This document shows positions 1-12,407 of a stretch of DNA of 64,000 nucleotides, piece by piece. A model generated the notes under the pieces. The model had not been told where the DNA came from, ran no database searches, and saw only the letters and a list, made by a program, of their open reading frames with translations. The stretch covers positions 10,472 through 74,471 of the IMG/VR virus record IMGVR_UViG_3300023174_000144, one strand, 5' to 3'. Origin of the DNA: a virus (taxonomy: Duplodnaviria; Caudoviricetes). Made by a program: the position numbers and the translations under genes. Within the stretch, counting starts at the first letter, position 1. Each line of letters begins with the position of its first letter.

Positions 1-1
1 G

Positions 2-184
2 AATCCTTCTTACGAGGAGGATACTGATCGCAACCTGTACAATTTGTACAATGCGTCAACTCAGTTCCTGACTCGGAACGTTGCAGATGAACGCTATGAG
101 TATAGCGAGCGCATCAGCACTGATTTGCTCAAAGTCTTCTCGGGCAAAACCCGTGACGAAGAGCTCCTGAAGCTGGTCGCCTAA
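2..184 (+). CDS. 3' end of a gene truncated by the window edge, DUF932-like
   Basis: Open frame 2 reads NPSYEEDTDRNLYNLYNASTQFLT...KLVA then TAA at 182-184. The LYNLYNA.T motif resembles the DUF932 C-terminus. A terminator follows. Confidence 0.45.
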   Translation, partial: NPSYEEDTDRNLYNLYNASTQFLTRNVADERYEYSERISTDLLKVFSGKTRDEELLKLVA

Positions 185-204
185 ACTAAAACGAAACTTT
201 AACA

Positions 205-236
205 GGTGCGAGGGGCAAAACCCCTCGCATCTTTTT
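205..236 (+). terminator. Rho-independent terminator
   Basis: TGCGAGGGG-caaaa-CCCCTCGCA stem followed by CTTTTT. Confidence 0.85.
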
Positions 237-255
237 GCTCAAATTTAATGAATTA

Positions 256-328
256 TAAGTCGTTGACCATCAAGCACTTACAGCGCGCGGGACCCTGCGT
301 TTGTAAGTCGTTAACCATTAACGAGATT
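256..328. repeat. Paired-palindrome element E1
   Basis: TAAGTCGTTGA-cca-TCAAGCACTTA (256-280), 23-nt GC linker, TAAGTCGTTAA-cca-TTAACGAGATT (304-328); 6 nt upstream of TTGACA. Confidence 0.9.
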
Positions 329-368
329 TAAATGTTGACAAAAAACCAAGTTCTGTTATTCTTAACCT

Positions 369-581
369 ATGACAAACAAACAATCAGTTCCATTCTATGT
401 GATGAATGTGTTCGGCCAAGACCGAGCCGTTATCCTAAACACCTCAATTCGTATGTGCACGAGCAAAGAAACTTGTTCACTCAAAGATTTGGAAAATTAT
501 GCCAAGGCTTTTGCTGTGGAGTTCTTTCAAGTTCCAAAACCTTCGAGCTTTCCTGCTAAAGTGGGGCAAGTAGTTTCTTGA
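369..581 (+). CDS. hypothetical early protein (leaderless)
   Basis: 70-aa ORF with ATG 6 nt after the -10 box TATTCT. Confidence 0.75.
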   Translation: MTNKQSVPFYVMNVFGQDRAVILNTSIRMCTSKETCSLKDLENYAKAFAVEFFQVPKPSSFPAKVGQVVS

Positions 582-585
582 AGAT

Positions 586-659
586 GGGCATATAGCTCAA
601 TTGGTTAGAGCGAAGCACTCATAATGCTTGGGTTGTAGGTTCAAGTCCTACTGTGCCCA
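586..659 (+). tRNA. tRNA with CAT anticodon (elongator Met or lysidine-type Ile2)
   Basis: Acceptor GGGCATA/TGTGCCC, anticodon arm AAGCA-CTCATAA-TGCTT, T arm GTAGG-TTCAAGT-CCTAC. G1-C72 is paired, so not an initiator. No encoded CCA. Confidence 0.92.
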
Positions 660-723
660 TAAATTATGATAATCTTCATAATTATTTATTGACAAAATCA
701 CAAGAGGTGTTAAACTTAAAACA

Positions 724-861
724 ATGAAAGAACCACATACTCTCCATACTTCTCCTTGTGCGGATTGGATGCTTAACTCTTATAGTAAGTTTGTTGAGCC
801 AACTCAAGCTGACATAGATTGGTATTTTAACAATAAAAGCATTGACAATAAACAAGAATAG
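724..861 (+). CDS. hypothetical 45-aa protein (not in ORF track)
   Basis: MKEPHTLHTSPCADWMLNSYSKFVEPTQADIDWYFNNKSIDNKQE, 7 nt after the TTGACA-N16-TAAACT promoter. Confidence 0.65.
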   Translation: MKEPHTLHTSPCADWMLNSYSKFVEPTQADIDWYFNNKSIDNKQE

Positions 862-875
862 GATAAACTAAAACT

Positions 876-1262
876 ATGAAACTTACAAAACAGAATCTTG
901 GTGGACATTGGGTAATTGGAATCGAAGGCAAGCGAGATGATATTGAGCAGTATCATAATCGAATCTATAATTGGGGTGGCACAAATGGTGAGCTTCAATG
1001 GATGAGTGAGACCTTCGCTTACTTTTGGATTACGATGGAGAAGTTGGAGCGAGTAATGTTCAAGTATGTTATGAGTAGTGTGAGTGATAAACTTGGCAAG
1101 AAAATGAAAGGCAGTAAAGGTGGATTGAAGAAAGCTGTAATGAATCGAGTCCACAATACAATTAATAATATTCCAAACGATACTTTTGTTAGAACAGCAC
1201 AAATCCAAGAGTTCTTTTCGCTCGGAAAGATTTCTGCTGAAAAGTTAGATACTGATAGCTAA
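876..1262 (+). CDS. hypothetical early protein, paralog of 11097-11516
   Basis: Leaderless promoter 842-869. Shares IYNWGGTNG, KG.KGGL and LG.ISAEK with the minus-strand ORF. Confidence 0.85.
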   Translation: MKLTKQNLGGHWVIGIEGKRDDIEQYHNRIYNWGGTNGELQWMSETFAYFWITMEKLERVMFKYVMSSVSDKLGKKMKGSKGGLKKAVMNRVHNTINNIPNDTFVRTAQIQEFFSLGKISAEKLDTDS

Positions 1263-1268
1263 TTTATC

Positions 1269-1353
1269 GGGCAAGTGGCGGAACTGGCGAGACGCATCTG
1301 GCTTAAGATCAGATACATTAGAAACATTGTGAGTTCAAATCTCACCTTGCCCA
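1269..1353 (+). tRNA. tRNA-Leu(UAA)
   Basis: GGGCAAG/CTTGCCC acceptor, TCTGG-CTTAAGA-TCAGA anticodon arm, long variable arm, GTGAG-TTCAAAT-CTCAC T arm. Confidence 0.92.
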
Positions 1354-1365
1354 AGTTTTGATGTT

Positions 1366-1437
1366 GCTCTTATAGCTTAATGGATAAAGTGAATGTCTTC
1401 TAAACATTCTATGCAGGTTCGATTCCTGCTAAGAGCA
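1366..1437 (+). tRNA. tRNA-Arg(UCU)
   Basis: GCTCTTA/TAAGAGC acceptor, AATGT-CTTCTAA-ACATT anticodon arm, GCAGG-TTCGATT-CCTGC T arm. Confidence 0.92.
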
Positions 1438-1489
1438 CTTTAGCTTAAAAAGATAATCTATTTCAATCTAATCTAGTGTAACTATAAGT

Positions 1490-2017
1490 ATGAATAAAAC
1501 TCTGTTAAAGCAATATATAGATTCTGGCTATTCTTCTTATAAGATAGCTAATATTTCTAATAAAGGCCAAACTACAATAAGATACTGGCTCAAAAAATAT
1601 GATTTATTTACCAAAGGAAACAAAAGAGATACTAAAATAATAAATGGAGATACTCATATTAAATGTGGAAACTGTGATAAATTTTATTCAAAAGATAATT
1701 TCTATAAAAAAACAAAAAAGTCATTTATGAGTTATTGCAAAGAATGCTTTAATGAATACGCAAAAGAGAGATGGAAAGCTAGAAAACGTAAGGCTATTGA
1801 ATATAAAGGTGGCAAATGCTCTTCTTGTGGCTATAATAAATGTCCTGATGTTCTTGAATTTCATCATAGAGATCCTAAACAAAAAGAATTTGATTGGAAA
1901 AAACTTCGTCAGATGTCTTGGGATAAGGTAACAAACGAATTAGATAAGTGCGACATACTTTGTTCGAACTGCCATAGAGAGCGACATTACGAAATATTTT
2001 CTCTAAATAAAAAATAA
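1490..2017 (+). CDS. HNH endonuclease with N-terminal HTH and Zn-finger (putative homing endonuclease)
   Basis: CSSCGYNKCPDVLEFHHRDP...ELDKCDILCSNCHRERH HNH motif. N-terminal HTH-like SSYKIANISNKGQTTIRYWLKKY. Confidence 0.85.
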   Translation: MNKTLLKQYIDSGYSSYKIANISNKGQTTIRYWLKKYDLFTKGNKRDTKIINGDTHIKCGNCDKFYSKDNFYKKTKKSFMSYCKECFNEYAKERWKARKRKAIEYKGGKCSSCGYNKCPDVLEFHHRDPKQKEFDWKKLRQMSWDKVTNELDKCDILCSNCHRERHYEIFSLNKK

Positions 2018-2018
2018 C

Positions 2019-2150
2019 ATGTACTCTATTTATGTGAGAGATTTTTTTGACAAGAATGCCCCAATCATTTTTCTTTGTGGAATAAGTTTGAGTATTTTTT
2101 GGGGAGCAATAGAAGAGTTAATTAAAATGTTAATTACACATCTAAAATAG
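2019..2150 (+). CDS. hypothetical 43-aa membrane peptide
   Basis: MYSIYVRDFFDKNAPIIFLCGISLSIFWGAIEELIKMLITHLK; starts 1 nt after the HNH stop. Confidence 0.45.
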   Translation: MYSIYVRDFFDKNAPIIFLCGISLSIFWGAIEELIKMLITHLK

Positions 2151-2221
2151 TTTTTCCAAAATATCTAAGTACACAGTATAAATAGTTGAAATATAAACCA
2201 ATATATTGTAATATATAATAT

Positions 2222-2380
2222 ATGAAGCATGAGAATAGATTTGATAAGAAACTAGAACAAAAAATCTTGTCTGAGATCGATCAAAAAGATCTTAAACAAA
2301 TTGATCAAATGCTTTCTGATTTAGAAATCGTCTGGAAGAAGTGGGTCAAAGCTCATCCAGATTGGAAGTCTCATGAATAA
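2222..2380 (+). CDS. hypothetical 52-aa protein
   Basis: MKHENRFDKKLEQKILSEIDQKDLKQIDQMLSDLEIVWKKWVKAHPDWKSHE; its TAA is the first 3 nt of element E2. Confidence 0.65.
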   Translation: MKHENRFDKKLEQKILSEIDQKDLKQIDQMLSDLEIVWKKWVKAHPDWKSHE

Positions 2381-2450
2381 GTCGTTGATACTCAAGTAGT
2401 TATAGAAGCAGGGAGCTTCGCGTTGTAAGTCGTTGACTCTCAAAGAGATA
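2378..2450. repeat. Paired-palindrome element E2
   Basis: TAAGTCGTTGA-tac-TCAAGTAGTTA, 23-nt linker, TAAGTCGTTGA-ctc-TCAAAGAGATA; 6 nt upstream of TTGACA. Confidence 0.9.
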
Positions 2451-2490
2451 TAAAGCTTGACAATTTTCACATCTATATTAGAATTATTAA

Positions 2491-2619
2491 ATGGCACTTC
2501 TTAAAGCTATTATTAATTTTCCTTTTGTTCAAATTTCGTATGGTGAAGGTAACATTTTATTAAGTTGGAAAGCCTGGCACTTGGCAGTATATTTATATTT
2601 TTGGTGGAATTATTCGTGA
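2491..2619 (+). CDS. hypothetical 42-aa hydrophobic protein
   Basis: MALLKAIINFPFVQISYGEGNILLSWKAWHLAVYLYFWWNYS; leaderless promoter 2457-2484; GTGA overlap with the next gene. Confidence 0.6.
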   Translation: MALLKAIINFPFVQISYGEGNILLSWKAWHLAVYLYFWWNYS

Positions 2620-2957
2620 AAGCAAAGCACAAAGTATACTATAACTTACATAAGCATTGTTTAAGTATAATGCTTCGTGGAAAAGTATTAGAGCATAACT
2701 CAGAGTTCTTTCTTAAAGATGTAGAGTTTAGAGTGAGTCAAGCTGGCAGAAACAGAGTATTAAAAGAAAAGCGGAAAAATGTTCACGCTTTTGTGTGTGG
2801 CACTCCAGATGATGGTTGGCCTATTGATCAAAATGAAAGAAAAGTAACATATAATCCTTATAAGTATAACAGCTTTGTTTATGCTGATACTCTTGAGCCA
2901 GTATACAAAGTAAAGTGGGCTGGTGTTATAAATCGTGATATATTTGTCTTGAATTAA
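2616..2957 (+). CDS. conserved phage hypothetical protein (VYYNLHK...VSQAGRNRVLKEKRKNVHAFV...YNPYK family)
   Basis: Start moved to GTG 2616 (coupled to upstream TGA) rather than TTG 2565. Motif recalled from many phage genomes; function unknown. Confidence 0.8.
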   Translation: MKAKHKVYYNLHKHCLSIMLRGKVLEHNSEFFLKDVEFRVSQAGRNRVLKEKRKNVHAFVCGTPDDGWPIDQNERKVTYNPYKYNSFVYADTLEPVYKVKWAGVINRDIFVLN

Positions 2958-2982
2958 TCTAAAAGTATAGTAGAATTATCTA

Positions 2983-3138
2983 ATGGAAATTACTAAAGCC
3001 AAGAAACTAAAGGAGGGTGGTTACGCACTATACGCAACTGACCCTAAAACTAAAACTGAAACCCAAGTTGGATATATTGGAGAAGGTCTGACTTTGGAAG
3101 CGTGGCTTCCTAAAGGAGTAAAAATTGAAAATTCTTGA
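2983..3138 (+). CDS. hypothetical 51-aa protein
   Basis: MEITKAKKLKEGGYALYATDPKTKTETQVGYIGEGLTLEAWLPKGVKIENS; leaderless promoter 2949-2976. Confidence 0.7.
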   Translation: MEITKAKKLKEGGYALYATDPKTKTETQVGYIGEGLTLEAWLPKGVKIENS

Positions 3139-3538
3139 AGAAACATTTACCAGTCGAGGATTTAAGTTCACGATGATTGGTCGTGATGGCGATGTTGCAA
3201 TCTATAAAAAGCAACTCGATGAACCAGACAGCGAAGCGTTCAACTATGAAGTGATTGCTATTAAGCGTCACAATGGATATGAAATTGCAGGTGTGAAGAT
3301 GCCACCAGCAGAAATGTATCCAAGCGATAGTCAATGGGGCGATTGGGCTTATACTTGTATTGATCGTGAAGATGCAGACAAGCGATTCGTTCAACTAAAA
3401 GAAAAACTAGAAGCTTATGTTGCGACATCAACCTTGCCTAATGGTGAGAAGCGTGGTCGTGGTCGTCCTCGTAAGAGCGATGTTCTTCCAGCACCTCCAG
3501 CAGAAATCCACTTGACACCAGAACAATTAGCAGTATAA
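3125..3538 (+). CDS. hypothetical protein with C-terminal AT-hook
   Basis: TTG start after AAGGAG; KRGRGRPRK AT-hook motif. Confidence 0.8.
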   Translation: MKILEETFTSRGFKFTMIGRDGDVAIYKKQLDEPDSEAFNYEVIAIKRHNGYEIAGVKMPPAEMYPSDSQWGDWAYTCIDREDADKRFVQLKEKLEAYVATSTLPNGEKRGRGRPRKSDVLPAPPAEIHLTPEQLAV

Positions 3539-3545
3539 TCCGATT

Positions 3546-3779
3546 ATGACATACAAATGTGCAGTAAGCGGTGAAGCAATTTCACCAGAGAGAGTTGAGG
3601 CTCTGCAAGTCCTCGGCGTTCCAGAAGCTCTATGGACTAAAAAAGAGCATAGTCAAACAAGAAAGCTAAAAGCTATATATGCAGGTGACGATGGCAGTAA
3701 TGACATTGTTATTTGTGATAATGTAGATGGTGGCTCAATGTTTGAGAATGAAGTAATCGCAGAGGTAGAAAATGACTAA
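3546..3779 (+). CDS. hypothetical protein (DksA/TraR-like C-x2-G..I..ERVEAL N-terminus, weak)
   Basis: Perfect TTGACA-N16-TATAAT-N6-ATG. YKCAVSGEAISPERVEAL resembles a degenerate DksA/TraR finger. Confidence 0.7.
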   Translation: MTYKCAVSGEAISPERVEALQVLGVPEALWTKKEHSQTRKLKAIYAGDDGSNDIVICDNVDGGSMFENEVIAEVEND

Positions 3780-3930
3780 TAAATTTATAGTATTGAGAGA
3801 CGGAGTTCGTGTCAGCGATGATATGTACAATTCAGAAGCAGATGCCCAACACGAGGCAAACTTCTGGCGTGAAATCATCAAGCGTTGGCCAGACGGCACG
3901 AAAGTCGTTATCAAAAAAATCGGTGGATAA
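3772..3930 (+). CDS. hypothetical 52-aa protein
   Basis: MTNKFIVLRDGVRVSDDMYNSEADAQHEANFWREIIKRWPDGTKVVIKKIGG, overlapping the upstream stop. Confidence 0.7.
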   Translation: MTNKFIVLRDGVRVSDDMYNSEADAQHEANFWREIIKRWPDGTKVVIKKIGG

Positions 3931-3952
3931 CTTCGGAGGCCGACACTAAAAT

Positions 3953-4043
3953 ACGAGGGTCGTCTAACTGGTTAAGACCCACGATTTATATTCGTGAAGC
4001 TCTAGATTTGAGCGTAATGAAGGTTCAAATCCTTCCCCTCGTA
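3953..4043 (+). tRNA. tRNA-Ile(UAU)-like with long variable arm
   Basis: ACGAGGG/CCCTCGT acceptor, GTCT/AGAC D stem, CACGA-TTTATAT-TCGTG anticodon arm, 22-nt variable region with GCTC-tagattt-GAGC hairpin, GAAGG-TTCAAAT-CCTTC T arm. Confidence 0.85.
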
Positions 4044-4116
4044 AACCCTTAACAATCAACAAGAAAAAAAAGATAAAAAAGTTTGACAAAAAAGAAAGGT
4101 ATAGTAAGATAAGAGT

Positions 4117-4383
4117 ATGAACAAAATCAAAAACGCAGTAATATACATAACCTCATTCACCAAGTATCTGTTCCTTTTCCTCGTAGGGCAAAGGTATCTG
4201 ATCGAATACAAACCCTACGGCAAAGATGAAGTCTATACTTACATCATTGGTAAGCCTTCGTCTTATACGATTAGCAAGGCTGGCAACAAGTTGTTTACGA
4301 CTTTTTGCTTCTCTGGTCGTATGGATTCTGGCGTGAAGCAATTCCGCTACGATAGAATTACTGGAGGTCTCTCGCCAGTTTAA
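4117..4383 (+). CDS. hypothetical protein (possible WYL/Sm-like C-terminus)
   Basis: Leaderless promoter 4083-4110. GVKQFRYDRI resembles the WYL R.FR.DRI motif (weak). Confidence 0.7.
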   Translation: MNKIKNAVIYITSFTKYLFLFLVGQRYLIEYKPYGKDEVYTYIIGKPSSYTISKAGNKLFTTFCFSGRMDSGVKQFRYDRITGGLSPV

Positions 4384-4422
4384 CAACAGAGAGATGGGGT
4401 CGTGATTTACCCCTCCATATAG

Positions 4423-4455
4423 AAAAGGCGAGACCTAAAAAATCTCGCCTTTTTT
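4423..4455. terminator. Rho-independent terminator, possibly bidirectional
   Basis: AAAAGGCGAGA-cctaaaaaa-TCTCGCCTTTTTT. Confidence 0.85.
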
Positions 4456-4490
4456 ATTGCACTTAAACAAAGTTATGTTAAGATAACTAT

Positions 4491-4619
4491 AGTTCTTTCC
4501 GCAAGGTGTGGAGTGACTAACCCATTAACGCCCTTGAAACCCCAATGCCCAGAGTCTGAGGCAATTAGAGGTGGGTATATATTCTCTTTGATTCTAGAGC
4601 AAAGAGAGCGGAAAAAACT
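4491..4619 (+). ncRNA. candidate structured ncRNA of ~129 nt
   Basis: Own promoter TTGCAC-N16-TAAGAT-N6 and no start codon. 5' AGTTCTTTCCGC pairs with 3' GCGGAAAAAACT (11/12). Internal hairpins; T-rich tail. Confidence 0.6.
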
Positions 4620-4801
4620 TATTTATTTTTGCGCCAATCTTCTCTGTGGTTAAATACCCAACTTAACAAAGCTTTTTCAAAACCAATATCTTGACCAGCT
4701 TTTTCACTTTCAATCCATTTGTGTTTTAAGATCTCTTCTCGTTCTTCCATGAACTTTTTATATAACGCTGACGACTCTAATATTCCAGAGGTTTTCATCA
4801 A
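4619..4801 (-). CDS. small DUF4032-like protein resembling a Verrucomicrobia family
   Basis: SALYKKFMEEREEILKHKWIESEKAGQDIGFEKALLSWVFNHREDW; preceded by late motif GTGTAA (4820-4825, minus strand). Confidence 0.75.
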   Translation of the reverse strand: MMKTSGILESSALYKKFMEEREEILKHKWIESEKAGQDIGFEKALLSWVFNHREDWRKNK

Positions 4802-4884
4802 ATATTATTATAAATAATATTACACAAAATAGCAAATAGTAATTGCTAAATAGCTAAATAATAAATATAATAATACTACATATT

Positions 4885-4956
4885 GGGGCTATCGTCTAAT
4901 GGTTAGGACTCCTCGCTTTCAATGAGGGTGTATCGGTTCGAATCCGTTTAGCCCTA
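4885..4956 (+). tRNA. tRNA-Glu(UUC)
   Basis: GGGGCTA/TAGCCCT acceptor (G1-U72), CCTCG-CTTTCAA-TGAGG anticodon arm, T loop TTCGAAT with one T-stem mismatch. Confidence 0.85.
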
Positions 4957-4973
4957 TATACTTATGATAGTTA

Positions 4974-5046
4974 TAAGTGCTTAATTATCAAAGATTTATA
5001 GCGGCGGGCTCCCTGCCTTTGTAAGTTGTTGATAATGAGAGAGTTA
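4974..5046. repeat. Paired-palindrome element E3
   Basis: TAAGTGCTTAA-tta-TCAAAGATTTA, 23-nt linker tagcggcgggctccctgcctttg, TAAGTTGTTGA-taa-TGAGAGAGTTA. Confidence 0.85.
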
Positions 5047-5181
5047 TTACTCTCCCATATCACGAGCATGGTCAGCATCAAGCTCTGCCTGAGTTTCTAA
5101 GGCTCGTTCCATAGCTTGATCGTCCCACATTTCTTTTGCCCAGATTTTTAGTGTTTTTTCGTCATCGAATATGTTCATCAT
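5047..5181 (-). CDS. hypothetical 44-aa acidic protein (not in ORF track)
   Basis: MMNIFDDEKTLKIWAKEMWDDQAMERALETQAELDADHARDMGE; SD AAGGAGGT; promoter TTGACT-N16-TAATCT. Confidence 0.75.
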   Translation of the reverse strand: MMNIFDDEKTLKIWAKEMWDDQAMERALETQAELDADHARDMGE

Positions 5182-5236
5182 ATTTACCTCCTTTCTTTCT
5201 ATAGATTATCATATTTATCTATATAGTCAACAATTA

Positions 5237-5309
5237 TATTTCATTGATTATTAGAGAGTTACAAAAGCGACCTCCCTTGTGCTGTAAGTCTTTGATGGTG
5301 AATGAGATT
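5237..5309. repeat. Paired-palindrome element E4 between divergent promoters
   Basis: TATTTCATTGA-tta-TTAGAGAGTTA, 23-nt linker, TAAGTCTTTGA-tgg-TGAATGAGATT; each end lies 6 nt from a -35 box. Confidence 0.85.
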
Positions 5310-5349
5310 TATTAGTAGACAAAAAGAAAAAAACTGATATATTTAAACT

Positions 5350-6189
5350 ATGAAAGTAAACGAAATTATCACTGAAAAATTCATCGAAGCCCTCAACAAA
5401 GGTGTCATCCCTTGGCAGAAACCTTGGAAAGTTTTTGACCTCTGCAACGGAGTTTCCAAAAAGAATTATAGGGGCATCAATCAATTTTTGCTACGGATGC
5501 TTGCTTCTGATGATTTCTTTTTTACATTTAATCAGATCAAGGAACTAGGTGGGAGAATCAAAAAGGGTGCAAAGTCTCACATGGTAGTTTATTACAAACT
5601 CCTCAAGACAGAAAGCAACAATGAAACCAAAACTTTTCCAATGATGAGATTTTATAAAGTTTTTGGCTTGAGTGATATTGAGGGCATGAAGTGGAAACAG
5701 CCTGAAGTTAAGAAGTTGGATTTTTCACCAGTAGAAGAAGCAGAAAAGTTGATCAACAAGTGTTTGATTCAGATTAAGTATGGTGGCAGTCGTGCCTGTT
5801 ATTATCCGCAGGAGCATAAAATTGATCTTCCTCCAAAAGAAAATTTCACCAGCGTTGAGGAGTATTATTCCACAGCGTTCCATGAGATTGGTCACGCTAT
5901 GCACAAGGCTACCAATGACGATGTAAAAAATGGATTTGGAACTCAGAATTATAGCAAAGAAGAATTGACAGCAGAGATTTTTGCAAGCCTATGCCTTAAC
6001 TTCTGCGGAATTGATTCAGAAAAATGTTTCAACAATTCTGCCAGCTATCTCTCCAACTGGCTAGGAGTATTAAAGAAAGACATGAACTTTATTATCTCAG
6101 CTTCTAGCAAAGCACAAAAAAGATTTGACGCTTTTATTGGTAGAAAAGAAAGCGAAGAGATTCCACAAGAAGAAGCTGTAACTGCTTAA
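5350..6189 (+). CDS. ardC: ArdC-like antirestriction / ssDNA-binding protein
   Basis: N-terminal GVIPWQKPW...YRGINQFLL (DUF1738) and zincin-like FHEIGH...YSKEELTAE C-terminal domain. Confidence 0.88.
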   Translation: MKVNEIITEKFIEALNKGVIPWQKPWKVFDLCNGVSKKNYRGINQFLLRMLASDDFFFTFNQIKELGGRIKKGAKSHMVVYYKLLKTESNNETKTFPMMRFYKVFGLSDIEGMKWKQPEVKKLDFSPVEEAEKLINKCLIQIKYGGSRACYYPQEHKIDLPPKENFTSVEEYYSTAFHEIGHAMHKATNDDVKNGFGTQNYSKEELTAEIFASLCLNFCGIDSEKCFNNSASYLSNWLGVLKKDMNFIISASSKAQKRFDAFIGRKESEEIPQEEAVTA

Positions 6190-6251
6190 GTATTAACTAC
6201 TTACGCAAGCGGGGTCCCTGCCGTTCTAAGTCATTGATAGTCAATGAGATT
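6179..6251. repeat. Paired-palindrome element E5, overlapping the ardC stop
   Basis: TAACTGCTTAA-gta-TTAACTACTTA, 23-nt linker, TAAGTCATTGA-tag-TCAATGAGATT. Confidence 0.85.
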
Positions 6252-6303
6252 TAACTGTAAAAAAAAAACTTGTACGAAAACAAAAACGTGGTAACCTATT
6301 TTT

Positions 6304-6939
6304 ATGTTCAAAAACAAAAAACAAGCCGAAGAGATTGTTGGCACACTCTCAAAACCCTCGAAGATGCCTGGATATGCTTATTCAACGCCCGCAAAGCGTT
6401 GTCTTATCGGGCAGAAAATGCGGAATGTTGTAGGAAGCATTTGTGCTTTTTGCTATGCTCTTAAAGGGCGTTATGTTTTCCCCAATGTTCAAAAAGCTAT
6501 GGAAAAGCGTTTTGCTTCTCTTACCAATGATTTGTGGGTGGATGCTATGACATACTTAATCGGCAAGGTTAAGAATCCGCATTTCAGGTGGCACGATTCG
6601 GGCGATTTGCAAGGTGTGTGGCATATTGAAAAGATTGTGAAGATTGCAAAGAATCTTCCTCACATTTCTTTTTGGCTTCCAACTCGTGAATATGCTTTCG
6701 TTTCAACCTATATTGAACAAGGCGGTGAAGTTCCTAGCAATCTTACTATCCGTTTGTCTGCTCTGATGATGGATGGCCCCGCACCCGTAGGAATTGCACA
6801 ACGCCTTGGCTTATGCGTTAGCGGTGCAAGTAAGATTGGAAACTTCAACTGCCCAAGCTCCAAACAAGGCAACAAGTGCGGTGATTGTCGCAAGTGTTGG
6901 GATAAAAATGAGTTTGCAATAGATTATAAAAAGCATTAA
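6304..6939 (+). CDS. Gp88-like cysteine-rich phage protein
   Basis: LSKPSKMPG, CAFCYALKGRY, FRWHDSGD, FWLPTRE, NLTIRLSA and C-terminal CGDCRKCW motifs. Confidence 0.7.
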   Translation: MFKNKKQAEEIVGTLSKPSKMPGYAYSTPAKRCLIGQKMRNVVGSICAFCYALKGRYVFPNVQKAMEKRFASLTNDLWVDAMTYLIGKVKNPHFRWHDSGDLQGVWHIEKIVKIAKNLPHISFWLPTREYAFVSTYIEQGGEVPSNLTIRLSALMMDGPAPVGIAQRLGLCVSGASKIGNFNCPSSKQGNKCGDCRKCWDKNEFAIDYKKH

Positions 6940-7009
6940 GATGTCTAGATGACATTAATCTTTTTAATTATCCTTGGAATAATTTTATCATTATATATAA
7001 CATACTAAA

Positions 7010-7159
7010 ATGAAAATTGAAAAACTCTTAAATGAAAATCTAGAATCTTTTTATCCTTGGAATGATTCTGATAATCCTCCACTCGATACAGATAAAAGTT
7101 TCGCACAAAAACAAAAAGAGATAGATGAAATCTTCGAAGGTTGGCGAGCGAGTATGTAA
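7010..7159 (+). CDS. hypothetical 49-aa protein
   Basis: MKIEKLLNENLESFYPWNDSDNPPLDTDKSFAQKQKEIDEIFEGWRASM. Confidence 0.6.
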   Translation: MKIEKLLNENLESFYPWNDSDNPPLDTDKSFAQKQKEIDEIFEGWRASM

Positions 7160-7173
7160 AAAACTTGCTGATG

Positions 7174-7245
7174 TAAGTCTTTGATAGTCAAGGATTTACA
7201 ACGGCAGGGCCCTGCGCCCGTAAGTCGTTGATAATCAATCACTTG
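7174..7245. repeat. Paired-palindrome element E6 at the convergence of the two early arms
   Basis: TAAGTCTTTGA-tag-TCAAGGATTTA, 22-nt linker containing perfect GCAGGGCCCTGC, TAAGTCGTTGA-taa-TCAATCACTTG. Confidence 0.9.
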
Positions 7246-7267
7246 GGACGATAGGTTATTTTACATT

Positions 7268-7501
7268 TTATTCTCCACAAATTTCTGGATCGCCGAAGTA
7301 ACCATAGTCTTCGTCAGTGCCGTGGCCAGCAGAAGCCATAGCAGAGTCAAAGTCGCCATCCATAGATTCGTCTGGCTCGTTAGAGGTTTCGGATTTGATA
7401 GCGCGATCATCTTCGCGCATCTCGTTAAGGATGTCACGCACATCCTGCGAGCCCAACATATGTTGAGCCATCCACTCTTTAAGAGAGGCTTTGTAGTCCA
7501 T
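7268..7501 (-). CDS. hypothetical acidic protein (DGDFDSAMASAGHGTDEDYGY motif)
   Basis: Start reassigned to ATG 7501, because the longer track ORF overlaps a better-supported upstream gene. Confidence 0.75.
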   Translation of the reverse strand: MDYKASLKEWMAQHMLGSQDVRDILNEMREDDRAIKSETSNEPDESMDGDFDSAMASAGHGTDEDYGYFGDPEICGE

Positions 7502-7502
7502 A

Positions 7503-7667
7503 TTATTTGACCTCCACGATGGTTTCAGTTTCGTTATAGCTCGGAGCCATCTTGTCGAGCATTTCATTGATAACGTCTGCGGAGTTGATGTAGTCGAAGA
7601 ATGCTTCCGCATCAGCATAGACTTCAACGCAGTTAATCGAGGCAAGGTAGGTGATTTCGTTTGTCAT
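7503..7667 (-). CDS. hypothetical 54-aa protein (not in ORF track)
   Basis: MTNEITYLASINCVEVYADAEAFFDYINSADVINEMLDKMAPSYNETETIVEVK; promoter TTGCGC-N16-TACATT-N6-ATG. Confidence 0.75.
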   Translation of the reverse strand: MTNEITYLASINCVEVYADAEAFFDYINSADVINEMLDKMAPSYNETETIVEVK

Positions 7668-7818
7668 AAGTTAAATGTATCACAGATTATTTTTAGCGCA
7701 ACATTTATTTTCAGAAAAAGTAAATAGAAGAATTGCTAATAGTAAATAGGAAATAGCCTAATAGTAAATAGCCCAATCTTTTCGCTTCATTCAGTTTTAT
7801 GTTGAAAATCATCATTTG

Positions 7819-7891
7819 TAAGTCGTTGATAGTCAAGGATTTGCGCGCGGGGGCTCCCTGCGTGTGTAAGTCGTTGATAGTGAGCGACTTA
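7819..7891. repeat. Paired-palindrome element E7
   Basis: TAAGTCGTTGA-tag-TCAAGGATTTG, 23-nt linker, TAAGTCGTTGA-tag-TGAGCGACTTA. Confidence 0.9.
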
Positions 7892-8041
7892 TAATTAGTC
7901 AAAAACCATAAAGAAAAAAGCGAGCTTCCAAAGCGTATTTAGAGATGTAATAAAAAAATCTCTCTCTCAAAAAGTTTTTCTTCTCACCATTTTTCACAGC
8001 GAGACGAAAAGTTTTTTTATTTATTTTGAAAAGTATTTTTT

Positions 8042-8236
8042 TCATTCGTATTGCCACTCACTAGCTTCTTCTTCGATCTCTGCTTCTATGTCAGGCCACA
8101 TATGGTCAGGAATAGAATAATTTCGGTTTAACTTTTTATCTTTGGCGATTTGAATTGCTCGCCCTAAACTTTGGAGAGCTTCGCTCCCGAAGTAGATTTC
8201 TTCTTTTAATCTTTGAACACTATTTGTTAAGTCCAT
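8042..8236 (-). CDS. hypothetical protein
   Basis: 64-aa ORF coupled to the upstream gene. Confidence 0.7.
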   Translation of the reverse strand: MDLTNSVQRLKEEIYFGSEALQSLGRAIQIAKDKKLNRNYSIPDHMWPDIEAEIEEEASEWQYE

Positions 8237-8237
8237 A

Positions 8238-8420
8238 TTATTTGCTCAACCTTTCTTGTGCATCTTTGAGATATTCAAGAGCCTCTCTGATTGATTCGTT
8301 TTGCCAACCTTTTGTGTAAGGTTTGACTGCTTCTAGTTTAATCACAGCAACCGAGAGGCAACCTTTTGCCCATCCTTTGTTGTGTGCTTCATTCATTATT
8401 TTTTCAATTTCAATTTCCAT
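8238..8420 (-). CDS. hypothetical protein
   Basis: Start at MEIEIEK (ATG 8420) after GGAGA. Confidence 0.7.
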   Translation of the reverse strand: MEIEIEKIMNEAHNKGWAKGCLSVAVIKLEAVKPYTKGWQNESIREALEYLKDAQERLSK

Positions 8421-8421
8421 A

Positions 8422-8697
8422 TTAGTCTCCTTTGTATTTTGAGGATTCGTTGAAACTTCCAATGAAGTTCATCGTTCCGTTTTTGCGTTCTTCGCATTGT
8501 TTGAGAAGTTCGGGAGTCATTTCGACTTCGGTCACTTCATCATAAAAAGCTAGGACACTTCCAACTCCAGAGATTCTAGAAAGGCATTTCTTGTTTGAGG
8601 TTGAGTTGAACATTTCGCAGATTGCGATATGGTTTTCGATTTGGTAGTATTTACCCACTACGAGGGTTTCTATTGTGTTTTTCATTTGTTCTTTCAT
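8422..8697 (-). CDS. hypothetical protein
   Basis: Leaderless promoter TTGACA-N16-TAGATT-N6-ATG. Confidence 0.75.
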   Translation of the reverse strand: MKEQMKNTIETLVVGKYYQIENHIAICEMFNSTSNKKCLSRISGVGSVLAFYDEVTEVEMTPELLKQCEERKNGTMNFIGSFNESSKYKGD

Positions 8698-8738
8698 ATT
8701 CTTAATCTATCACACTTTCTGATTTTGTCAAGCTGTTA

Positions 8739-8763
8739 AATTTCGTTGATTTACAGCGACTTA
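8739..8763. repeat. Single 25-bp palindrome of the E family
   Basis: AATTTCGTTGA-ttt-ACAGCGACTTA, 7 nt from the -35 box at 8726-8731. Confidence 0.75.
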
Positions 8764-8939
8764 GGACTTTTCCCATTAAGTTTTTCTTTAAGTAGAGCGT
8801 GAGCCCTAGCTTTTTCAGGGTTATTCTTTTTCCATTCAGCCCATCGCTTTTTGCGATTTGACCATATAGCTTGATTTTTTTCTTTGCGTTGAATTTCCCA
8901 CTCTTGGGAAGTTAGTTCTTTTTTATTATCTTTATTCAT
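8751..8939 (-). CDS. hypothetical basic protein
   Basis: Likely start at MNKDNKK; A-rich leader resembles that of 9872-10147. Confidence 0.65.
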   Translation of the reverse strand: MNKDNKKELTSQEWEIQRKEKNQAIWSNRKKRWAEWKKNNPEKARAHALLKEKLNGKSPKSL

Positions 8940-9031
8940 TTTATTTTTTCTTTCTTTCATTTTCATTTCTTATCTTGTTATAAGTATAGTTTAGCATATT
9001 TCAGAGAAAACGCAACAAAAATCTTCATTTA

Positions 9032-9104
9032 AATTTCATTGATCATCAACGAGTTACAACGCAAGGGACCCTGCGTCTGTAAGTCATTATCTTGTAACAA
9101 CTTA
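9032..9104. repeat. Paired-palindrome element E8
   Basis: AATTTCATTGA-tca-TCAACGAGTTA, 23-nt linker, TAAGTCATTAT-ctt-GTAACAACTTA. Confidence 0.88.
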
Positions 9105-9116
9105 CATCAGCTAATT

Positions 9117-9512
9117 TTAGAATGCCGTGAAAGTCATTTTTGTAGATTCATCTAAAGTTTTTTTAGAAGGTTTGAAAAAGATTACTTTTTCTGAAACTTT
9201 TTCAACTGTGATATTTTCTGGCAAAGAAACTGTCTCACCTTCATCATCTGTGGCTACCATCAGAGCCTTGCCAGCATAAGGTTGAGATTGAATCCCATAC
9301 TTAAAGTAGGCTTGATGCTCTGAATCTTTTAGTAGTCCTTCGTCATCTAGAATTAAATCGATTCCTCTGTATTGGTTTGATGTGCCAATGCCAGCAACTG
9401 TTATGATTTCGCAATCAATTAAGTTTTTAATGGTTTGAAGTTTAGTATCAACCATCGTTACATCCATTACAGTTTCAGTAAATGGGTCTATGAGTATTGC
9501 TCTTGTCATCAT
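9117..9512 (-). CDS. DUF3846-like protein
   Basis: AILIDPF...LQTIKNLIDC...LILDDEGLLK...YAGKALMV. Confidence 0.7.
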   Translation of the reverse strand: MMTRAILIDPFTETVMDVTMVDTKLQTIKNLIDCEIITVAGIGTSNQYRGIDLILDDEGLLKDSEHQAYFKYGIQSQPYAGKALMVATDDEGETVSLPENITVEKVSEKVIFFKPSKKTLDESTKMTFTAF

Positions 9513-9513
9513 A

Positions 9514-9657
9514 TTAGATGTTCCTCGTTTTTAGTAGGTTGCTCAACTCTGCTAGATAAACTCCAGCGGTGAGGTTGTATTGTTTATTGTTTAGGTCTTT
9601 GATGATGTCCACCAAGTTGGAAGCCAACTCGATAATCTTGTCATTGGTATTGTTCAT
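9514..9657 (-). CDS. hypothetical 47-aa protein (not in ORF track)
   Basis: MNNTNDKIIELASNLVDIIKDLNNKQYNLTAGVYLAELSNLLKTRNI; promoter TTGACA-N17-TAACCT-N6-ATG. Confidence 0.7.
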   Translation of the reverse strand: MNNTNDKIIELASNLVDIIKDLNNKQYNLTAGVYLAELSNLLKTRNI

Positions 9658-9688
9658 ATGTTTAGGTTATCTCCTTTTGCTAATTTTG

Positions 9689-9871
9689 TCAAACACCAAA
9701 CTTGTTACGATATTGATTATATAGGTTTTGATATTCTTCGCCACCTTGGGCGATAGCTTCTTCAATTTCTTTAAGTTGATTTTGACCTCTGCGATAGTAG
9801 TATGAGTCTTCACTCATTTGGTAAGTCCAATCGTGATTCTTTAAGAGTTCTTCGAATTGTTGAATGTTCAT
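9689..9871 (-). CDS. conserved small phage protein (L..HDW.Y..S.D...Y.RG)
   Basis: 60-aa ORF directly coupled to the upstream stop. Confidence 0.75.
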   Translation of the reverse strand: MNIQQFEELLKNHDWTYQMSEDSYYYRRGQNQLKEIEEAIAQGGEEYQNLYNQYRNKFGV

Positions 9872-10147
9872 TTATTTATTTTCCTTTATTAGTTTAGCGT
9901 TATTAAGGTTGATAGTTCCAACCTTATCTTTATCTTTACCTTCTAGGAAGGTTACAACCGCAGTATTTGCAGAAGTTTTGTAAGAAACTTTTACTAGAGT
10001 TCCTTCGTAAAGGTATATTTCACCAAAGTAAGTTGGTGTATTGTTAGAGTTAGTAATGATTACTTCTTCAGAAGCATTCATATTTTTTCGCATATTTTCA
10101 CGCATTTGTTTTCGTTGAAAATTCCAGTTTATCATTCTATGAGTCAT
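9872..10147 (-). CDS. hypothetical protein
   Basis: 91-aa ORF downstream of promoter 10197-10224. Confidence 0.7.
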   Translation of the reverse strand: MTHRMINWNFQRKQMRENMRKNMNASEEVIITNSNNTPTYFGEIYLYEGTLVKVSYKTSANTAVVTFLEGKDKDKVGTINLNNAKLIKENK

Positions 10148-10220
10148 TTTATTTTTTTCTTTCTTTGTTATTTGTTATCTTTTATCTTATGTATATAGTT
10201 TACCACAATTCGTCCAAAAG

Positions 10221-10409
10221 TCAAATTATTTCTTCAATTTGTTTTTCGTTGATTATCATAGAGTTATGATGAGCAACTTCAACTTTCTGCTGATATTTTG
10301 AGAAACTTTCGTCTAATCTCTTTTGAGATTCTTCGATTGATTTTTTCAGTTCGGCAGAAGCCTTGTCGATATTTCCTAGGAGGATTTCTAATTTGTTTTT
10401 TCTTTTCAT
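10221..10409 (-). CDS. hypothetical coiled-coil protein, paralog of 11636-11785
   Basis: Leaderless promoter 10416-10443; N..KAS..LK...KVE..H pattern. Confidence 0.75.
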   Translation of the reverse strand: MKRKNKLEILLGNIDKASAELKKSIEESQKRLDESFSKYQQKVEVAHHNSMIINEKQIEEII

Positions 10410-10459
10410 ACCTATAATCTATCACATTTTAGAAATTTTGCAAGATATTTTTACATTTA

Positions 10460-10532
10460 AATTTCGTTGACCATCAAGAACTTACAACGCAAGGGAGGCG
10501 GCTTACATAACTCATTGATACTTAATGGTTTA
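10460..10532. repeat. Paired-palindrome element E9
   Basis: AATTTCGTTGA-cca-TCAAGAACTTA, 23-nt linker, TAACTCATTGA-tac-TTAATGGTTTA. Confidence 0.88.
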
Positions 10533-10546
10533 GATTTTATGCGTTC

Positions 10547-10616
10547 CATCAGGTTTTGGTCTAAGATCGGTGAGGATCTTTTGCCTTTCATCAGGTTTGT
10601 CCCTAAGATCGAGGAT
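10547..10616. repeat. Imperfect ~30-bp direct repeat between E9 and E10
   Basis: CATCAGGTTTTGGTCTAAGATCGGTGAGGAT (10547-10577) vs CATCAGGTTTGTCCCTAAGATCGAGGAT (10589-10616). Confidence 0.75.
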
Positions 10617-10619
10617 ACG

Positions 10620-10692
10620 TAAGTCGTTAGCTATTAAGCACTTAGGTAAGATCCCTCCCTGCGCGCGTAAGTCCTTGATGGGTAGGTACTTA
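10620..10692. repeat. Paired-palindrome element E10
   Basis: TAAGTCGTTAG-cta-TTAAGCACTTA, 23-nt linker, TAAGTCCTTGA-tgg-GTAGGTACTTA. Confidence 0.88.
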
Positions 10693-10714
10693 CAAGCAGT
10701 AGGTTAGCTAATCG

Positions 10715-11092
10715 TTACAGCTTATAAAACTTATGATTGCGTATTGTTGCTACCAGCTTTGTATTCTTTGCCCATTTGGGCGAGACGCTGATAGCGTGAT
10801 AGTGATTAGCACCCTTGACGATGTCGGGCATCTGCTTATGTATAACTAGATCAGCAAGGTAGAGAGCGTTCTTACCTTGTGCTGTTGCTAGTAGTTTTCT
10901 TTTAGTGGATTCACTCACGCCACCATTCCAGAAACTAAACTGCTTGGATGCTAGACACACTTGGCTTGCTGATTGCTTACGCTCTACCATCCTTGTTTGG
11001 ATAACGCTAGCAACGCCAGCCATTCCCTCGAATGTCTCGCCCCTAGCTTCACCCAAGAGCGTCAATGCTACGATGAATAGTTCTGCTGTCAT
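10715..11092 (-). CDS. SleB/Hydrolase_2-family cell wall hydrolase
   Basis: LLGEARGE, VASVIQTR, QFSFWN, GANHYH..VSPKWA..TIRNHKFY; start placed at MTAE. Confidence 0.85.
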   Translation of the reverse strand: MTAELFIVALTLLGEARGETFEGMAGVASVIQTRMVERKQSASQVCLASKQFSFWNGGVSESTKRKLLATAQGKNALYLADLVIHKQMPDIVKGANHYHAISVSPKWAKNTKLVATIRNHKFYKL

Positions 11093-11096
11093 AGGA

Positions 11097-11516
11097 TTAG
11101 TCCCTTCCATTACTTACTGCCCCGCAGTAGTCACTAGGTTTCTCTGCACTGATAGTGCCAAGGTTGTAGACGCTCGACCAGCTATCATTCCTTAAGAATC
11201 TGCCCTTCTCAATGCTATCCACAATGCCTTGAGCCTTTGCCCTTGCAAGGTCAATGAGGCCACCTTTGCGACCCTTTGCATTGATCTTGTTGGTCAATGA
11301 ATGAATGGCAATCTTGGTAAGAGCCTTCATTACATCATCAGGATGAGCGTAGAAGTAAAACGCTTTGCCGTTGCCCATATCGTGCAACTTGCCGTTTGTT
11401 CCACCCCAATTATAAATGGAGTTGAAGAAGTGATTGATCTGCTTGAGGTTTCCTTCTAGTAGATAAGCGTGGCTTTCACCGAAGGTTTCGTAGGTTATTT
11501 TTAGGTTTTGTTTCAT
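11097..11516 (-). CDS. hypothetical early protein, paralog of 876-1262
   Basis: IYNWGGTNGKL, KGRKGGL, LGTISAEK; start moved to MKQNLK. Confidence 0.8.
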   Translation of the reverse strand: MKQNLKITYETFGESHAYLLEGNLKQINHFFNSIYNWGGTNGKLHDMGNGKAFYFYAHPDDVMKALTKIAIHSLTNKINAKGRKGGLIDLARAKAQGIVDSIEKGRFLRNDSWSSVYNLGTISAEKPSDYCGAVSNGRD

Positions 11517-11555
11517 AGGTAGTATATTGCCTTTTTGTTTATGTTTCGTCAACTA

Positions 11556-11639
11556 TTATTTTTTAGCTGTTACCATACCATAGATGCCCACGAGGATGCT
11601 TCCAATGGTAAGGGTAAAGATTAGGGTATCGATATTCAT
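11556..11639 (-). CDS. 27-aa single-TM peptide
   Basis: MNIDTLIFTLTIGSILVGIYGMVTAKK; ATGA overlap with the upstream gene. Confidence 0.55.
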   Translation of the reverse strand: MNIDTLIFTLTIGSILVGIYGMVTAKK

Positions 11640-11785
11640 TTGCTCATCGCTTTCTGATGGATAGCTTCCACCTTTTCGGCGTGAGCGTCAAGGATTAGAA
11701 CTGCCTTGGTAGAGGCGTTCTTAAGGTCTTGGCTAGCCTTGTTTAGGTTTGCGATCAGTTGTTCGTATTTACTTAGTTTCTTCAT
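11636..11785 (-). CDS. hypothetical 49-aa protein, paralog of 10221-10409 (not in ORF track)
   Basis: MKKLSKYEQLIANLNKASQDLKNASTKAVLILDAHAEKVEAIHQKAMSK; promoter TTGCAC-N16-TAGATT-N6-ATG. Confidence 0.75.
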   Translation of the reverse strand: MKKLSKYEQLIANLNKASQDLKNASTKAVLILDAHAEKVEAIHQKAMSK

Positions 11786-11836
11786 ATAGGTAATCTATCA
11801 CAGAATAGGAATAGTGCAAGGGATTTTCTTCAGTTA

Positions 11837-11861
11837 AATTTCATTGACCATCAACGACTTA
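11837..11861. repeat. Single 25-bp palindrome of the E family
   Basis: AATTTCATTGA-cca-TCAACGACTTA, 17 nt from the -35 box. Confidence 0.8.
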
Positions 11862-12042
11862 CGCCTACCCCATTAAATTGTTTGAAGATATTATATGGAA
11901 AATGCCATAGGGGTACCCCTACCCCTTTTTGAAAAAGCAGGCTTTCTAAAAAACACAAAAGAGGGGGGAGGGGGTAAATTTCATTCGCTCTATTAATAAT
12001 AACCTATTCTTCTTATGCCCTCTTATACCCCTACCCTTTTTT
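11862..12042. other. Non-coding G/C-tract region at the early/late divergence (candidate packaging site or terminus)
   Basis: Perfect palindrome TAGGGGTACCCCTA (11908-11921), ACCCCTACCC(C)TTTTT twice, GAGGGGGGAGGGGGT (11961-11975). Confidence 0.4.
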
Positions 12043-12400: not shown

Positions 12401-12407
12401 AAAATAT

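Follow-up and report, generated by a model that had tools for sequence, protein, structure and literature searches.

Paired palindromic sites resembling IHF targets punctuate the early region of a clade of uncultured phages

Background

What is the use, to a phage, of the same pair of short palindromes repeated again and again between its early genes? The question is raised by a 64,000-nucleotide stretch of a tailed phage (IMG/VR record IMGVR_UViG_3300023174_000144, positions 10,472 to 74,471), here called the window, whose first 12 kb are studded with copies of a 25-bp dyad. A preliminary description had offered three readings of these copies: operators for a dimeric protein, recombination or single-stranded DNA hairpin sites which let small early genes move as cassettes, and signals for staged DNA entry. 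In the present analysis the element was followed within the window, in related phages and in bacterial genomes. The early region is punctuated by modules of about 73 bp, each made of two copies of the palindrome and a GC-rich spacer, and their most likely role, as judged from sequence, is the docking of a DNA-bending protein, rather than the formation of hairpins or recognition by a recombinase. The operator branch of the preliminary interpretation fits the evidence, while its branch of hairpin or recombinase cassettes is left unsupported.

The dyads and their family

Every position of the window was scored against the dyad consensus, TAAGTCGTTGA-N3-TCAACGACTTA, 25 bp long with 22 specified positions. 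All 22 dyads previously listed were recovered where they had been placed, each with a score of 15-20/22. Ten pairs are formed (elements 1 to 10 in Table 1), in which, as described, the linker measures 23 nt in 9 cases and 22 nt in the element at 7174, corresponding to start-to-start distances of 48 and 47 nt. The two dyads given as single, at 8739 and 11837, are real, but a third single copy, scoring 16/22, had been overlooked at 10242-10266, raising the total to 23. No position beyond 11861, that is in the other 52 kb of the window, reaches 15/22, in agreement with the reported absence of dyads from the late genes. The score distribution is bimodal: with 3 mismatches allowed, 7 real matches are found against none in 100 dinucleotide shuffles, while scores of 13-14 do not exceed the level of shuffles, where about 95 sites score 13 or more. 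The copies are imperfect palindromes, pairing at only 6-9 of their 11 arm positions, and their linkers are rich in GC, against 26-39% GC in the window. Overlap with stop codons, described as frequent, holds for three copies (2378, 6179 and 8739).

A motif scan of IMG/VR identified the dyad in at least 118 contigs. Family counts were taken from 1.05 Mb of fetched loci. These contain 739 dyads, the scores of which are clearly bimodal, and a permuted control consensus scored 16/22 at most; 628 unique dyads were used for column statistics. At least 4 dyads are present in 70 loci. The paired arrangement dominates, and the centre-to-centre distance, constant within each phage, varies between phages, being 34, 41-42, 48, 50-51, 53, 58 or 60 bp. 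Close relatives of the window, at 65-91% identity, number six; one of these contigs, of 171,916 bp and rated 100% complete, is here called G001 and is reported as linear, without end repeats. Confinement to one region is marked in this genome, where 24 of 26 dyads lie at 124.8-136.4 kb, i.e. within 11.6 kb; the two isolated ones are found at 94359 and 149603 (18/22 and 15/22). Two other near-complete genomes, G002 and G003, contain one or two dyad clusters each.

The clade is remote from studied phages, its TerL sharing no more than about 24% identity with the TerL of any cultured one. No DNA match was found among INPHARED phages for either the 12.5-kb early region or an 89-nt element, nor did the open reading frame (ORF) 21370-22524 match anything in cultured phages. 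Full-text literature searches with the motif returned primers and one predicted IHF site of Dickeya; a description of the element was not among the results.

Half-sites conserved independently

The symmetry of the dyads could be maintained by base pairing or by a protein contacting two equivalent half-sites. In the 628 unique dyads, Watson-Crick pairing of mirrored columns equals the expectation for independence at all 11 pairs, and a deviation in one arm is usually met by an opposite arm that stays at consensus: except at columns 4 and 7, which in any case alternate between G and C, fewer than 10% of deviations are compensated. A neighbour-anchored test, which avoids selecting dyads for their similarity to a palindrome, counted 109 compensated deviations out of 523, 69 of which at columns 4 and 7. 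The first and second dyads of a module (D1 and D2) are complementary to each other only at the level of chance; instead, they feature an excess of direct identity at variable columns and share a non-palindromic centre. The "nested triple palindrome" previously proposed is thus not a selected structure, the two dyads being direct copies. The predicted RNA folds of the 10 window elements are, in turn, mutually inconsistent. Because covariation is lacking, D1 and D2 are direct copies and the folds disagree, each dyad is best taken as a pair of half-sites which a symmetric protein would contact on duplex DNA.

Helical phasing to early promoters

Of the 23 dyads in the window, 10 precede the TTGACA-type -35 box of a sigma70-like promoter by 6-7 or 16-18 nt. 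The centre of the promoter-side dyad falls at about -53 or -64 from the predicted start of the leaderless early transcripts, both positions lying on one helical face. The same two distances recur in flanks throughout the family, a gap of 6 nt being found in 33 and one of 16-18 nt in 28. Twelve early units between 335 and 11800 share one layout, a TTGACA-like box, N16, TAnnnT, exactly 6 nt and ATG (examples are 335-371, 2457-2493, 8731-8695 and 11819-11783); as the ATG comes only 6 nt after TAnnnT, early transcripts should be leaderless. Late genes feature instead weak GGAG/AGGA motifs resembling Shine-Dalgarno sequences.

Independently conserved half-sites, a direct-repeat pair and a strict helical register with -35 boxes are all in keeping with operators for a dimeric protein. 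A module would consist of two direct copies of the site, 48 bp apart in the window phage, around a spacer of about 80% GC. Bending at the -53/-64 dyad would shape the DNA upstream of strong sigma70-type early promoters, and the second site, together with the GC-rich spacer, may separate the promoter from the preceding transcription unit.

Resemblance to IHF sites

The arm of the dyad reads (W)ATCAA-N4-TTA and the centre prefers T-W-A, with T9 and A17 near-invariant (0.99). The smallest distance between dyad centres, 34 bp, is about one footprint of a DNABII protein. The arm matches the IHF consensus, WATCAANNNNTTR (WATCAA-N4-TTR) (PMC9452768; 10.1101/382655); AATCAACGAGTTA is given as a predicted IHF site of Dickeya (PMC9452768). 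The full 13-nt consensus occurs in at least one arm of 321 of the 628 unique dyads (51%) and in both arms of 31, over a background of one per 14,190 nt, and the shorter TCAANNNNTTR is found in 57-58% of arms. The two kinks which IHF introduces into DNA are separated by 9 bp; WATCAR falls in the interval, and TTR in the clamped flank (10.1101/382655). If column 13, on the axis of the dyad, is taken as the W, 9 bp are covered from T9 to A17, and these two positions flank the expected kink steps, a correspondence of sequence register alone. The two arms would share the axial W, as in 5'-YAA-N4-TTGAT-W-ATCAA-N4-TTR, and with this arrangement both can meet the kink register of IHF at once.

Chromosomal copies in bacteria

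Species-representative genomes were searched with a version of the dyad 20 bases long, which matched 39 bacterial loci, where about one was expected by chance. Matches are mostly single, near-perfect dyads, the exception being two stretches of one short phage-like contig. They were found in Fibrobacter, in Akkermansia and other Verrucomicrobiales, in several Bacteroidota, in Lentisphaerae and in a Gemmatimonadaceae genome. Five tRNA gene ends are located 2-13 nt from dyads, which lie downstream of four of these genes and beside the fifth on the opposite strand; other sites are upstream of argS, of dnaA and of an RPA-type replication initiator, or next to an integrase. One Akkermansia genome contains 11 sites against none for the control, and in Fibrobacteraceae 25 of 61 genomes contain sites, about 85 in all against about 5 in the control. 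Dyads are kept at orthologous intergenic positions at six loci in Fibrobacter and four in Akkermansia. A literature search for a paper on the Fibrobacter motif found nothing.

As dyads occur singly in bacterial chromosomes, the protein binding them is probably encoded by the host, which is more economical than a phage-specific factor. Each motif-bearing bacterium has 2-5 DNABII genes. None of these genes stands next to a chromosomal site, and autoregulation was discarded. A conserved Fibrobacter protein of 136-157 aa encoded beside a dyad was also dropped as a candidate binder, having neither a Pfam family nor a homologue in the phage loci.

Two further chromosomal arrangements were noted. In a Fibrobacteraceae genome (G058), four identical dyads occur in a repeat of about 300 nt at the edges of 4.8-kb repeated units (L179:390 and L179:5179, corresponding to positions 2589 and 7378 of G058:C1, and positions 3121962 and 3126749); these units are not rRNA operons, as first supposed, the 4.8-kb repeat having no Rfam match. 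In Bacteroidota, some dyads precede a conserved T-rich stretch that ends in TTTTAGGG (L124:5574, L132:3248, the same as L162, L135:2854, L147:1287 and L154:6978); several are beside a tRNA gene, and those of L124 and L132/L162 are next to an integrase. This combination may signal where members of a family of integrative elements end.

The candidate binding protein

With slightly better than even confidence, we favour the view that each dyad is a duplex-DNA site for a symmetric, DNA-bending dimer, most probably a nucleoid protein of the host, of HU/IHF (DNABII) type. Symmetrical conservation of both arms implies a homodimer, or at least a symmetric binding mode. The identity of the protein, the bending and the direction of the regulatory effect are what we infer from the features described above.

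Several observations weigh against this view. Classical IHF sites are asymmetric, and the one-sided consensus expected for an asymmetric heterodimer is not what is found here, both arms being conserved. Columns 4-7 (GTCG), which IHF leaves unspecified, are fairly conserved. The distance between dyads ranges from 34 to 60 bp across lineages, with no common helical phase, so that two bound dimers cannot share one fixed geometry throughout the family. The elements at 4974, 7174, 7819 and 10620 have no adjacent promoter. In lineages L059, L056 and L098, moreover, a promoter-like TTGACA-N16-TAnnGG sequence faces into the element, the dyad being centred near +18 or +7, which suggests repression or a roadblock, not activation. 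Finally, Verrucomicrobiota sites occur in only 6 of 121 genomes and are concentrated in two of them, a patchy distribution easier to reconcile with a specialised protein, or one spread horizontally, than with a universal HU.

In the inward-facing arrangement, the -35 box is 33 or 22-23 nt from the dyad, distances one helical turn apart, and an AT-rich tract lies upstream of the promoter. Such promoters are often found on both sides of an element, as seen in L178 (same contig as L059), L056, L098 and L051. In the sole case with gene calls, L178:3886-4120, the inward promoter is antisense and back-to-back with a sense promoter.

A rather unlikely alternative is that the dyads are operators for a dedicated dimeric regulator, encoded by the phage or delivered with the virion, which closes down early transcription, or sets its timing, when bound at the UP-element position (-41 to -65) in outward promoters and at +7 to +18 in inward ones. 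It would account for the confinement of the dyads to the early region and for their strict phasing to promoters; a dyad just past the start site is in a typical repressor position, and linker sequences and spacings specific to each phage could mirror a co-evolving phage factor. The most widely shared protein family, however, occurs in at most 24 of the 70 element-bearing loci. The families PF00216, PF01381, PF00589, PF00239 and PF01797 were all searched in the three near-complete genomes G001-G003 and none was found, which leaves these genomes without an HTH_3 or DNABII protein; the Pfam inventory of G001 covers 150 of 192 ORFs, with 25 of 76 families listed, and other DNA-binding folds may remain. 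A phage-specific repressor also offers no explanation for the identical motif being found as single sites at housekeeping loci in bacteria of several phyla, and the dyad is nearly constant across phages whose TerL is so remote from that of cultured ones.

Other binders were examined in turn. A phage-encoded HU/IHF was rejected for G001-G003, as PF00216 is missing there, and sites of EbfC (GTnAC), FNR (TTGAT-N4-ATCAA), Xer/dif and LacI type were rejected as unfit in spacing or sequence. The preliminary description had seen neither recombinase nor regulator in the window; this holds for the ORFs scanned, the 10 largest early ones and 16 late ones, but a canonical AT-hook motif is present in the early protein encoded at 3125-3538. 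This protein is a possible minor-groove DNA binder by its sequence motif, but cannot be the family-wide partner of the dyads, because it is restricted to the six closest relatives.

Possible hairpin formation

A clearly less probable alternative to a host DNA-bending protein is that the elements work as hairpins, either as RNA stem-loops (terminators, processing sites, 5' stabilisers) or as extruded or single-stranded DNA. The dyads are palindromic, some copies are predicted to fold very stably, with z-scores down to -6.3, and the stem-loops of the promoter-early stem-loop (PeSL) cassettes known in T4-type phages terminate transcription (PMC2839356). Some chromosomal dyads of Bacteroidota lie, in addition, within longer palindromes followed by T-runs, after tRNA genes. 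Set against this, the arms do not undergo compensatory change and in the window pair imperfectly, D1 does not complement D2, their loops being directly identical, and the predicted structure varies from copy to copy. A terminator scan of positions 1-13000 gave 12 terminator-like hits, none of which overlaps an element, and Rfam identified only tRNAs in the same region. Since a canonical terminator at 204-232 precedes element 1, the element itself is not the terminator there.

The linkers deserve separate consideration. They are 80% GC, against 40% for the loci, and their consensus is particular to each phage. A perfect stem of at least 5 bp is found in 40% of them (25% in shuffles), and a G-run followed by a C-run in 35% (23% in shuffles), the reverse order being avoided; about a fifth carry a T-run in terminator polarity. 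The window elements lack the combination of GC-rich stem-loop and U-tract of intrinsic terminators, which some linkers of other lineages possess. Because hairpin potential is only moderately enriched, high GC content appears to be the general property of the spacer, and the attenuator hairpin, which a G-run and a C-run would additionally form in some lineages, a lineage-specific addition.

Rearrangement junctions at the elements

Gene order in close relatives breaks at the elements. Synteny with L053, L113, L063, L043 and L005 is interrupted at elements 256, 2378, 4974, 5237, 7174, 8739 and 9032. A 1.5-kb unit (2457-4043), which follows element 2378 in the window, follows the homologue of element 256 in L053, L113, L063 and L043, and the segments delimited by elements 4974, 5237 and 7174 have changed places in L005 (F/E swap).

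The check proposed in the preliminary description does not refute the cassette model, as breakpoints between relatives coincide with the elements, but no recombinase was found in the three near-complete genomes. That the elements are site-specific recombination or transposition sites, either integron attC-like or REP/RAYT-like, moving early genes as cassettes, is a decidedly improbable explanation, in spite of their location at cassette boundaries and of the coincident junctions just described. RAYT, integrase and resolvase models were rejected, as neither PF01797 nor PF00589 or PF00239, hence no Y1 transposase and no tyrosine or serine recombinase, was found in G001-G003. Each cassette carries its own promoter, no hairpin covariation is observed, which also leaves single-stranded DNA hairpins unsupported as recombinase substrates, and a 3-bp centre is too short for a crossover region of the Xer or integrase type. 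General recombination enzymes suffice for exchange between 90-bp repeats, and the listed part of the G001 inventory includes a PD-(D/E)XK nuclease, endonuclease VII, a RuvB-like protein and a ligase. Homologous recombination between repeats, as with PeSLs, would explain the breakpoints well enough: a module of about 90 bp with its promoter, repeated a dozen times, would provide seams along which early-gene cassettes are shuffled.

Pausing or stopping of staged DNA entry, suggested by analogy with the palindrome-rich injection-stop region of T5 on the ground that the array is early and rich in palindromes, is scarcely credible for an array of about 11.6 kb with at least 13 units tied to promoters, the dyads of which are also single sites in bacterial chromosomes.

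Comparison with known systems

The closest parallel is with the PeSL cassettes of the T4-type phages RB49 and phi1, in which genes are shuffled through recombination of promoter/stem-loop repeats with one another, and mini-circles form (Arbiol et al. 2010, PMC2839356). In both systems short intergenic modules are repeated in a plastic early region, upstream of small genes without known function, and comprise a strong sigma70-type promoter and a GC-rich segment, often a G-run then a C-run; in both, cassettes change place among relatives, in the present phages probably by recombination between copies. PeSLs, as described in PMC2839356, do not contain 25-bp dyads, whereas the constant part of the present elements is a pair of palindromic sites with fixed spacing, in helical register with the -35 box. 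Here, moreover, the GC-rich spacer would form a hairpin only in a minority of copies, and the phage clade is unrelated. By these comparisons the element is a PeSL-like early-region module, the constant part of which is a pair of IHF-like candidate docking sites phased to promoters.

The likeness to IHF sites extends from the arm and its kink register to the bacterial contexts, since dnaA upstream regions, replication-initiator genes, integrase/tRNA junctions and promoters are all typical for such sites. Mu Pe and lambda pL are examples of early phage promoters assisted by IHF. Known sites, however, have a one-sided consensus bound by a heterodimer, while the candidate sites are symmetric, with a conserved N4, and occur as pairs around a GC-rich spacer, mainly outside Proteobacteria.

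In the BIME/RIP elements of E. coli, REP palindromes flank an IHF site. These too are intergenic mosaics of GC-rich palindromes and IHF-type sites at gene boundaries, but the order is inverted in the present modules, where IHF-like sites flank the GC-rich part, and which are phage-borne and promoter-phased. The REP/REPIN-RAYT system differs in that PF01797 is missing here, the hairpin is not maintained, and there is no GTAG/CGTC tag of the kind given in PMC3733652; the dyad begins with TAAG and is flanked by CG. Integron attC sites resemble the elements as imperfect palindromes bounding small gene cassettes; here, in contrast, there is no integrase (PF00589, G001-G003), each cassette is provided with a promoter and nothing points to a folded-strand constraint.

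A broader scenario can be put forward only tentatively, and may well prove wrong as a whole. The dyad could be an unrecognised "double-consensus", high-affinity homodimeric site of HU/IHF type, used at replication, integration and promoter loci by certain lineages of Fibrobacter, Akkermansia and Bacteroidota, and taken over by a very large clade of uncultured phages of 110-170 kb, which would set it in pairs on either side of a GC clamp to make boundary or insulator modules. Early genes would thereby be independent and strongly expressed on freshly injected DNA, the modules also acting as seams for cassette exchange. If so, an easily tested DNA target would be available for a nucleoid protein in groups whose regulation is almost unstudied (Fibrobacter, Akkermansia, aquatic Bacteroidota), and the host-takeover region of a large uncultured phage clade would turn out to be built of standard modules of promoter and docking sites, doubling as points of gene exchange. 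The motif is so sharply defined that it could mark the early regions of these phages in metagenomes, and it may hint at their hosts.

Features of the window

The elements, their promoters and neighbouring genes are listed in Table 1. Five tRNA genes lie inside the early array. The ArdC-like gene is likely to serve in anti-restriction or host takeover.

Table 1. Elements, promoters and selected genes in the window (window coordinates)
Feature	Position	Strand	Remarks
Intrinsic terminator, canonical	204-232	+	12-bp GC-rich stem, then TTTTT; just upstream of element 1
Element 1	256-328		Dyad 256-280, GC-rich linker 281-303, dyad 304-328
Element 1 promoter	335-340 (-35), 357-362 (-10)		TTGACA, 6 nt after second dyad; TATTCT; leaderless ATG 369
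tRNA-Met(CAT)	585-660
tRNA-Leu(TAA)	1269-1353
tRNA-Arg(TCT)	1366-1438
Element 2	2378-2450		Dyads 2378-2402 and 2426-2450; first TAA is stop of ORF 2222-2380
Element 2 promoter	2457-2462 (-35)		TTGACA, gap 6 nt; ATG 2491
AT-hook protein, 137 aa	3125-3538	+	Canonical GRGRPRK; homologues only in six closest relatives
tRNA-Ile(TAT)	3952-4044		93 nt
tRNA-Glu(TTC)	4884-4957
Element 3	4974-5046		Directly 3' of tRNA-Glu; no adjacent outward promoter; seam of F/E segment swap in relative L005
Element 4	5237-5309		Between divergent promoters, one dyad per promoter
Element 4 left promoter	5230-5225 (-35)	-	TTGACT, 6 nt from left dyad
Element 4 right promoter	5316-5321 (-35)	+	TAGACA, 6 nt from right dyad; ATG 5350
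ArdC-like protein	5350-6189	+	ArdcN and zincin MPTase-PolyVal domain
Element 5	6179-6251		First dyad holds stop codon of ArdC-like gene
Element 5 promoter	6270-6275 (-35), 6292-6297 (-10)		TTGTAC, 18 nt after second dyad; TAACCT; ATG 6304
Element 6	7174-7245		22-nt linker containing GCAGGGCCCTGC; no adjacent promoter; between convergent genes, at junction of plus-strand and minus-strand blocks
Element 7	7819-7891		3' end of minus-strand ORF 7899-8057; nearest promoter of next minus-strand gene about 117 nt off
Single dyad	8739-8763		Overlaps stop codon of ORF 8751-8966
Dyad 8739 promoter	8731-8726 (-35), 8709-8704 (-10)	-	TTGACA, 7 nt off; TAGATT; leaderless ATG 8697
Element 8	9032-9104		Left dyad 16 nt upstream of minus-strand -35 TTGCGT 9015-9010; gene start 8966
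Single dyad, 16/22	10242-10266		17 nt upstream of minus-strand -35 TTGACT 10224-10219
Element 9	10460-10532		Left dyad 16 nt upstream of minus-strand -35 TTGCAA 10443-10438
Element 9 promoter		-	-10 TAGATT, then leaderless ATG 10409
Direct repeats of 37 nt, two in tandem	10533-10611		GAT(T/C)TT..CATCAGGTTT..CTAAGATCG; fill gap between elements 10460 and 10620
Element 10	10620-10692		3' end of minus-strand cell-wall-hydrolase gene 10715-11110
Single dyad	11837-11861		Right-hand end of array; 17 nt upstream of minus-strand -35 TTGCAC 11819-11814
Dyad 11837 promoter	11797-11792 (-10)	-	TAGATT; leaderless ATG 11785
Tape measure protein, 2789 aa	34471-42840	+	Glucosaminidase domain
Tail-region protein, 438 aa	51277-52593	-	Hint/intein-like domain

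A sigma factor had been guessed, from its position, in the window ORF 16885-17571, which turned out to encode a lysozyme-like protein. Sigma70-family proteins of about 226 aa are encoded in relatives, one or two in each, a few kb from the array (G001:141968-142648 and 79146-79334; G003:30585-30725; G002:76725-76859), and a sigma-like family is present in 20 of the fetched loci. No homologue of the G001 sigma-like gene was detected in the window by tblastn; gene order in the window differs from that of G001 after 12 kb.

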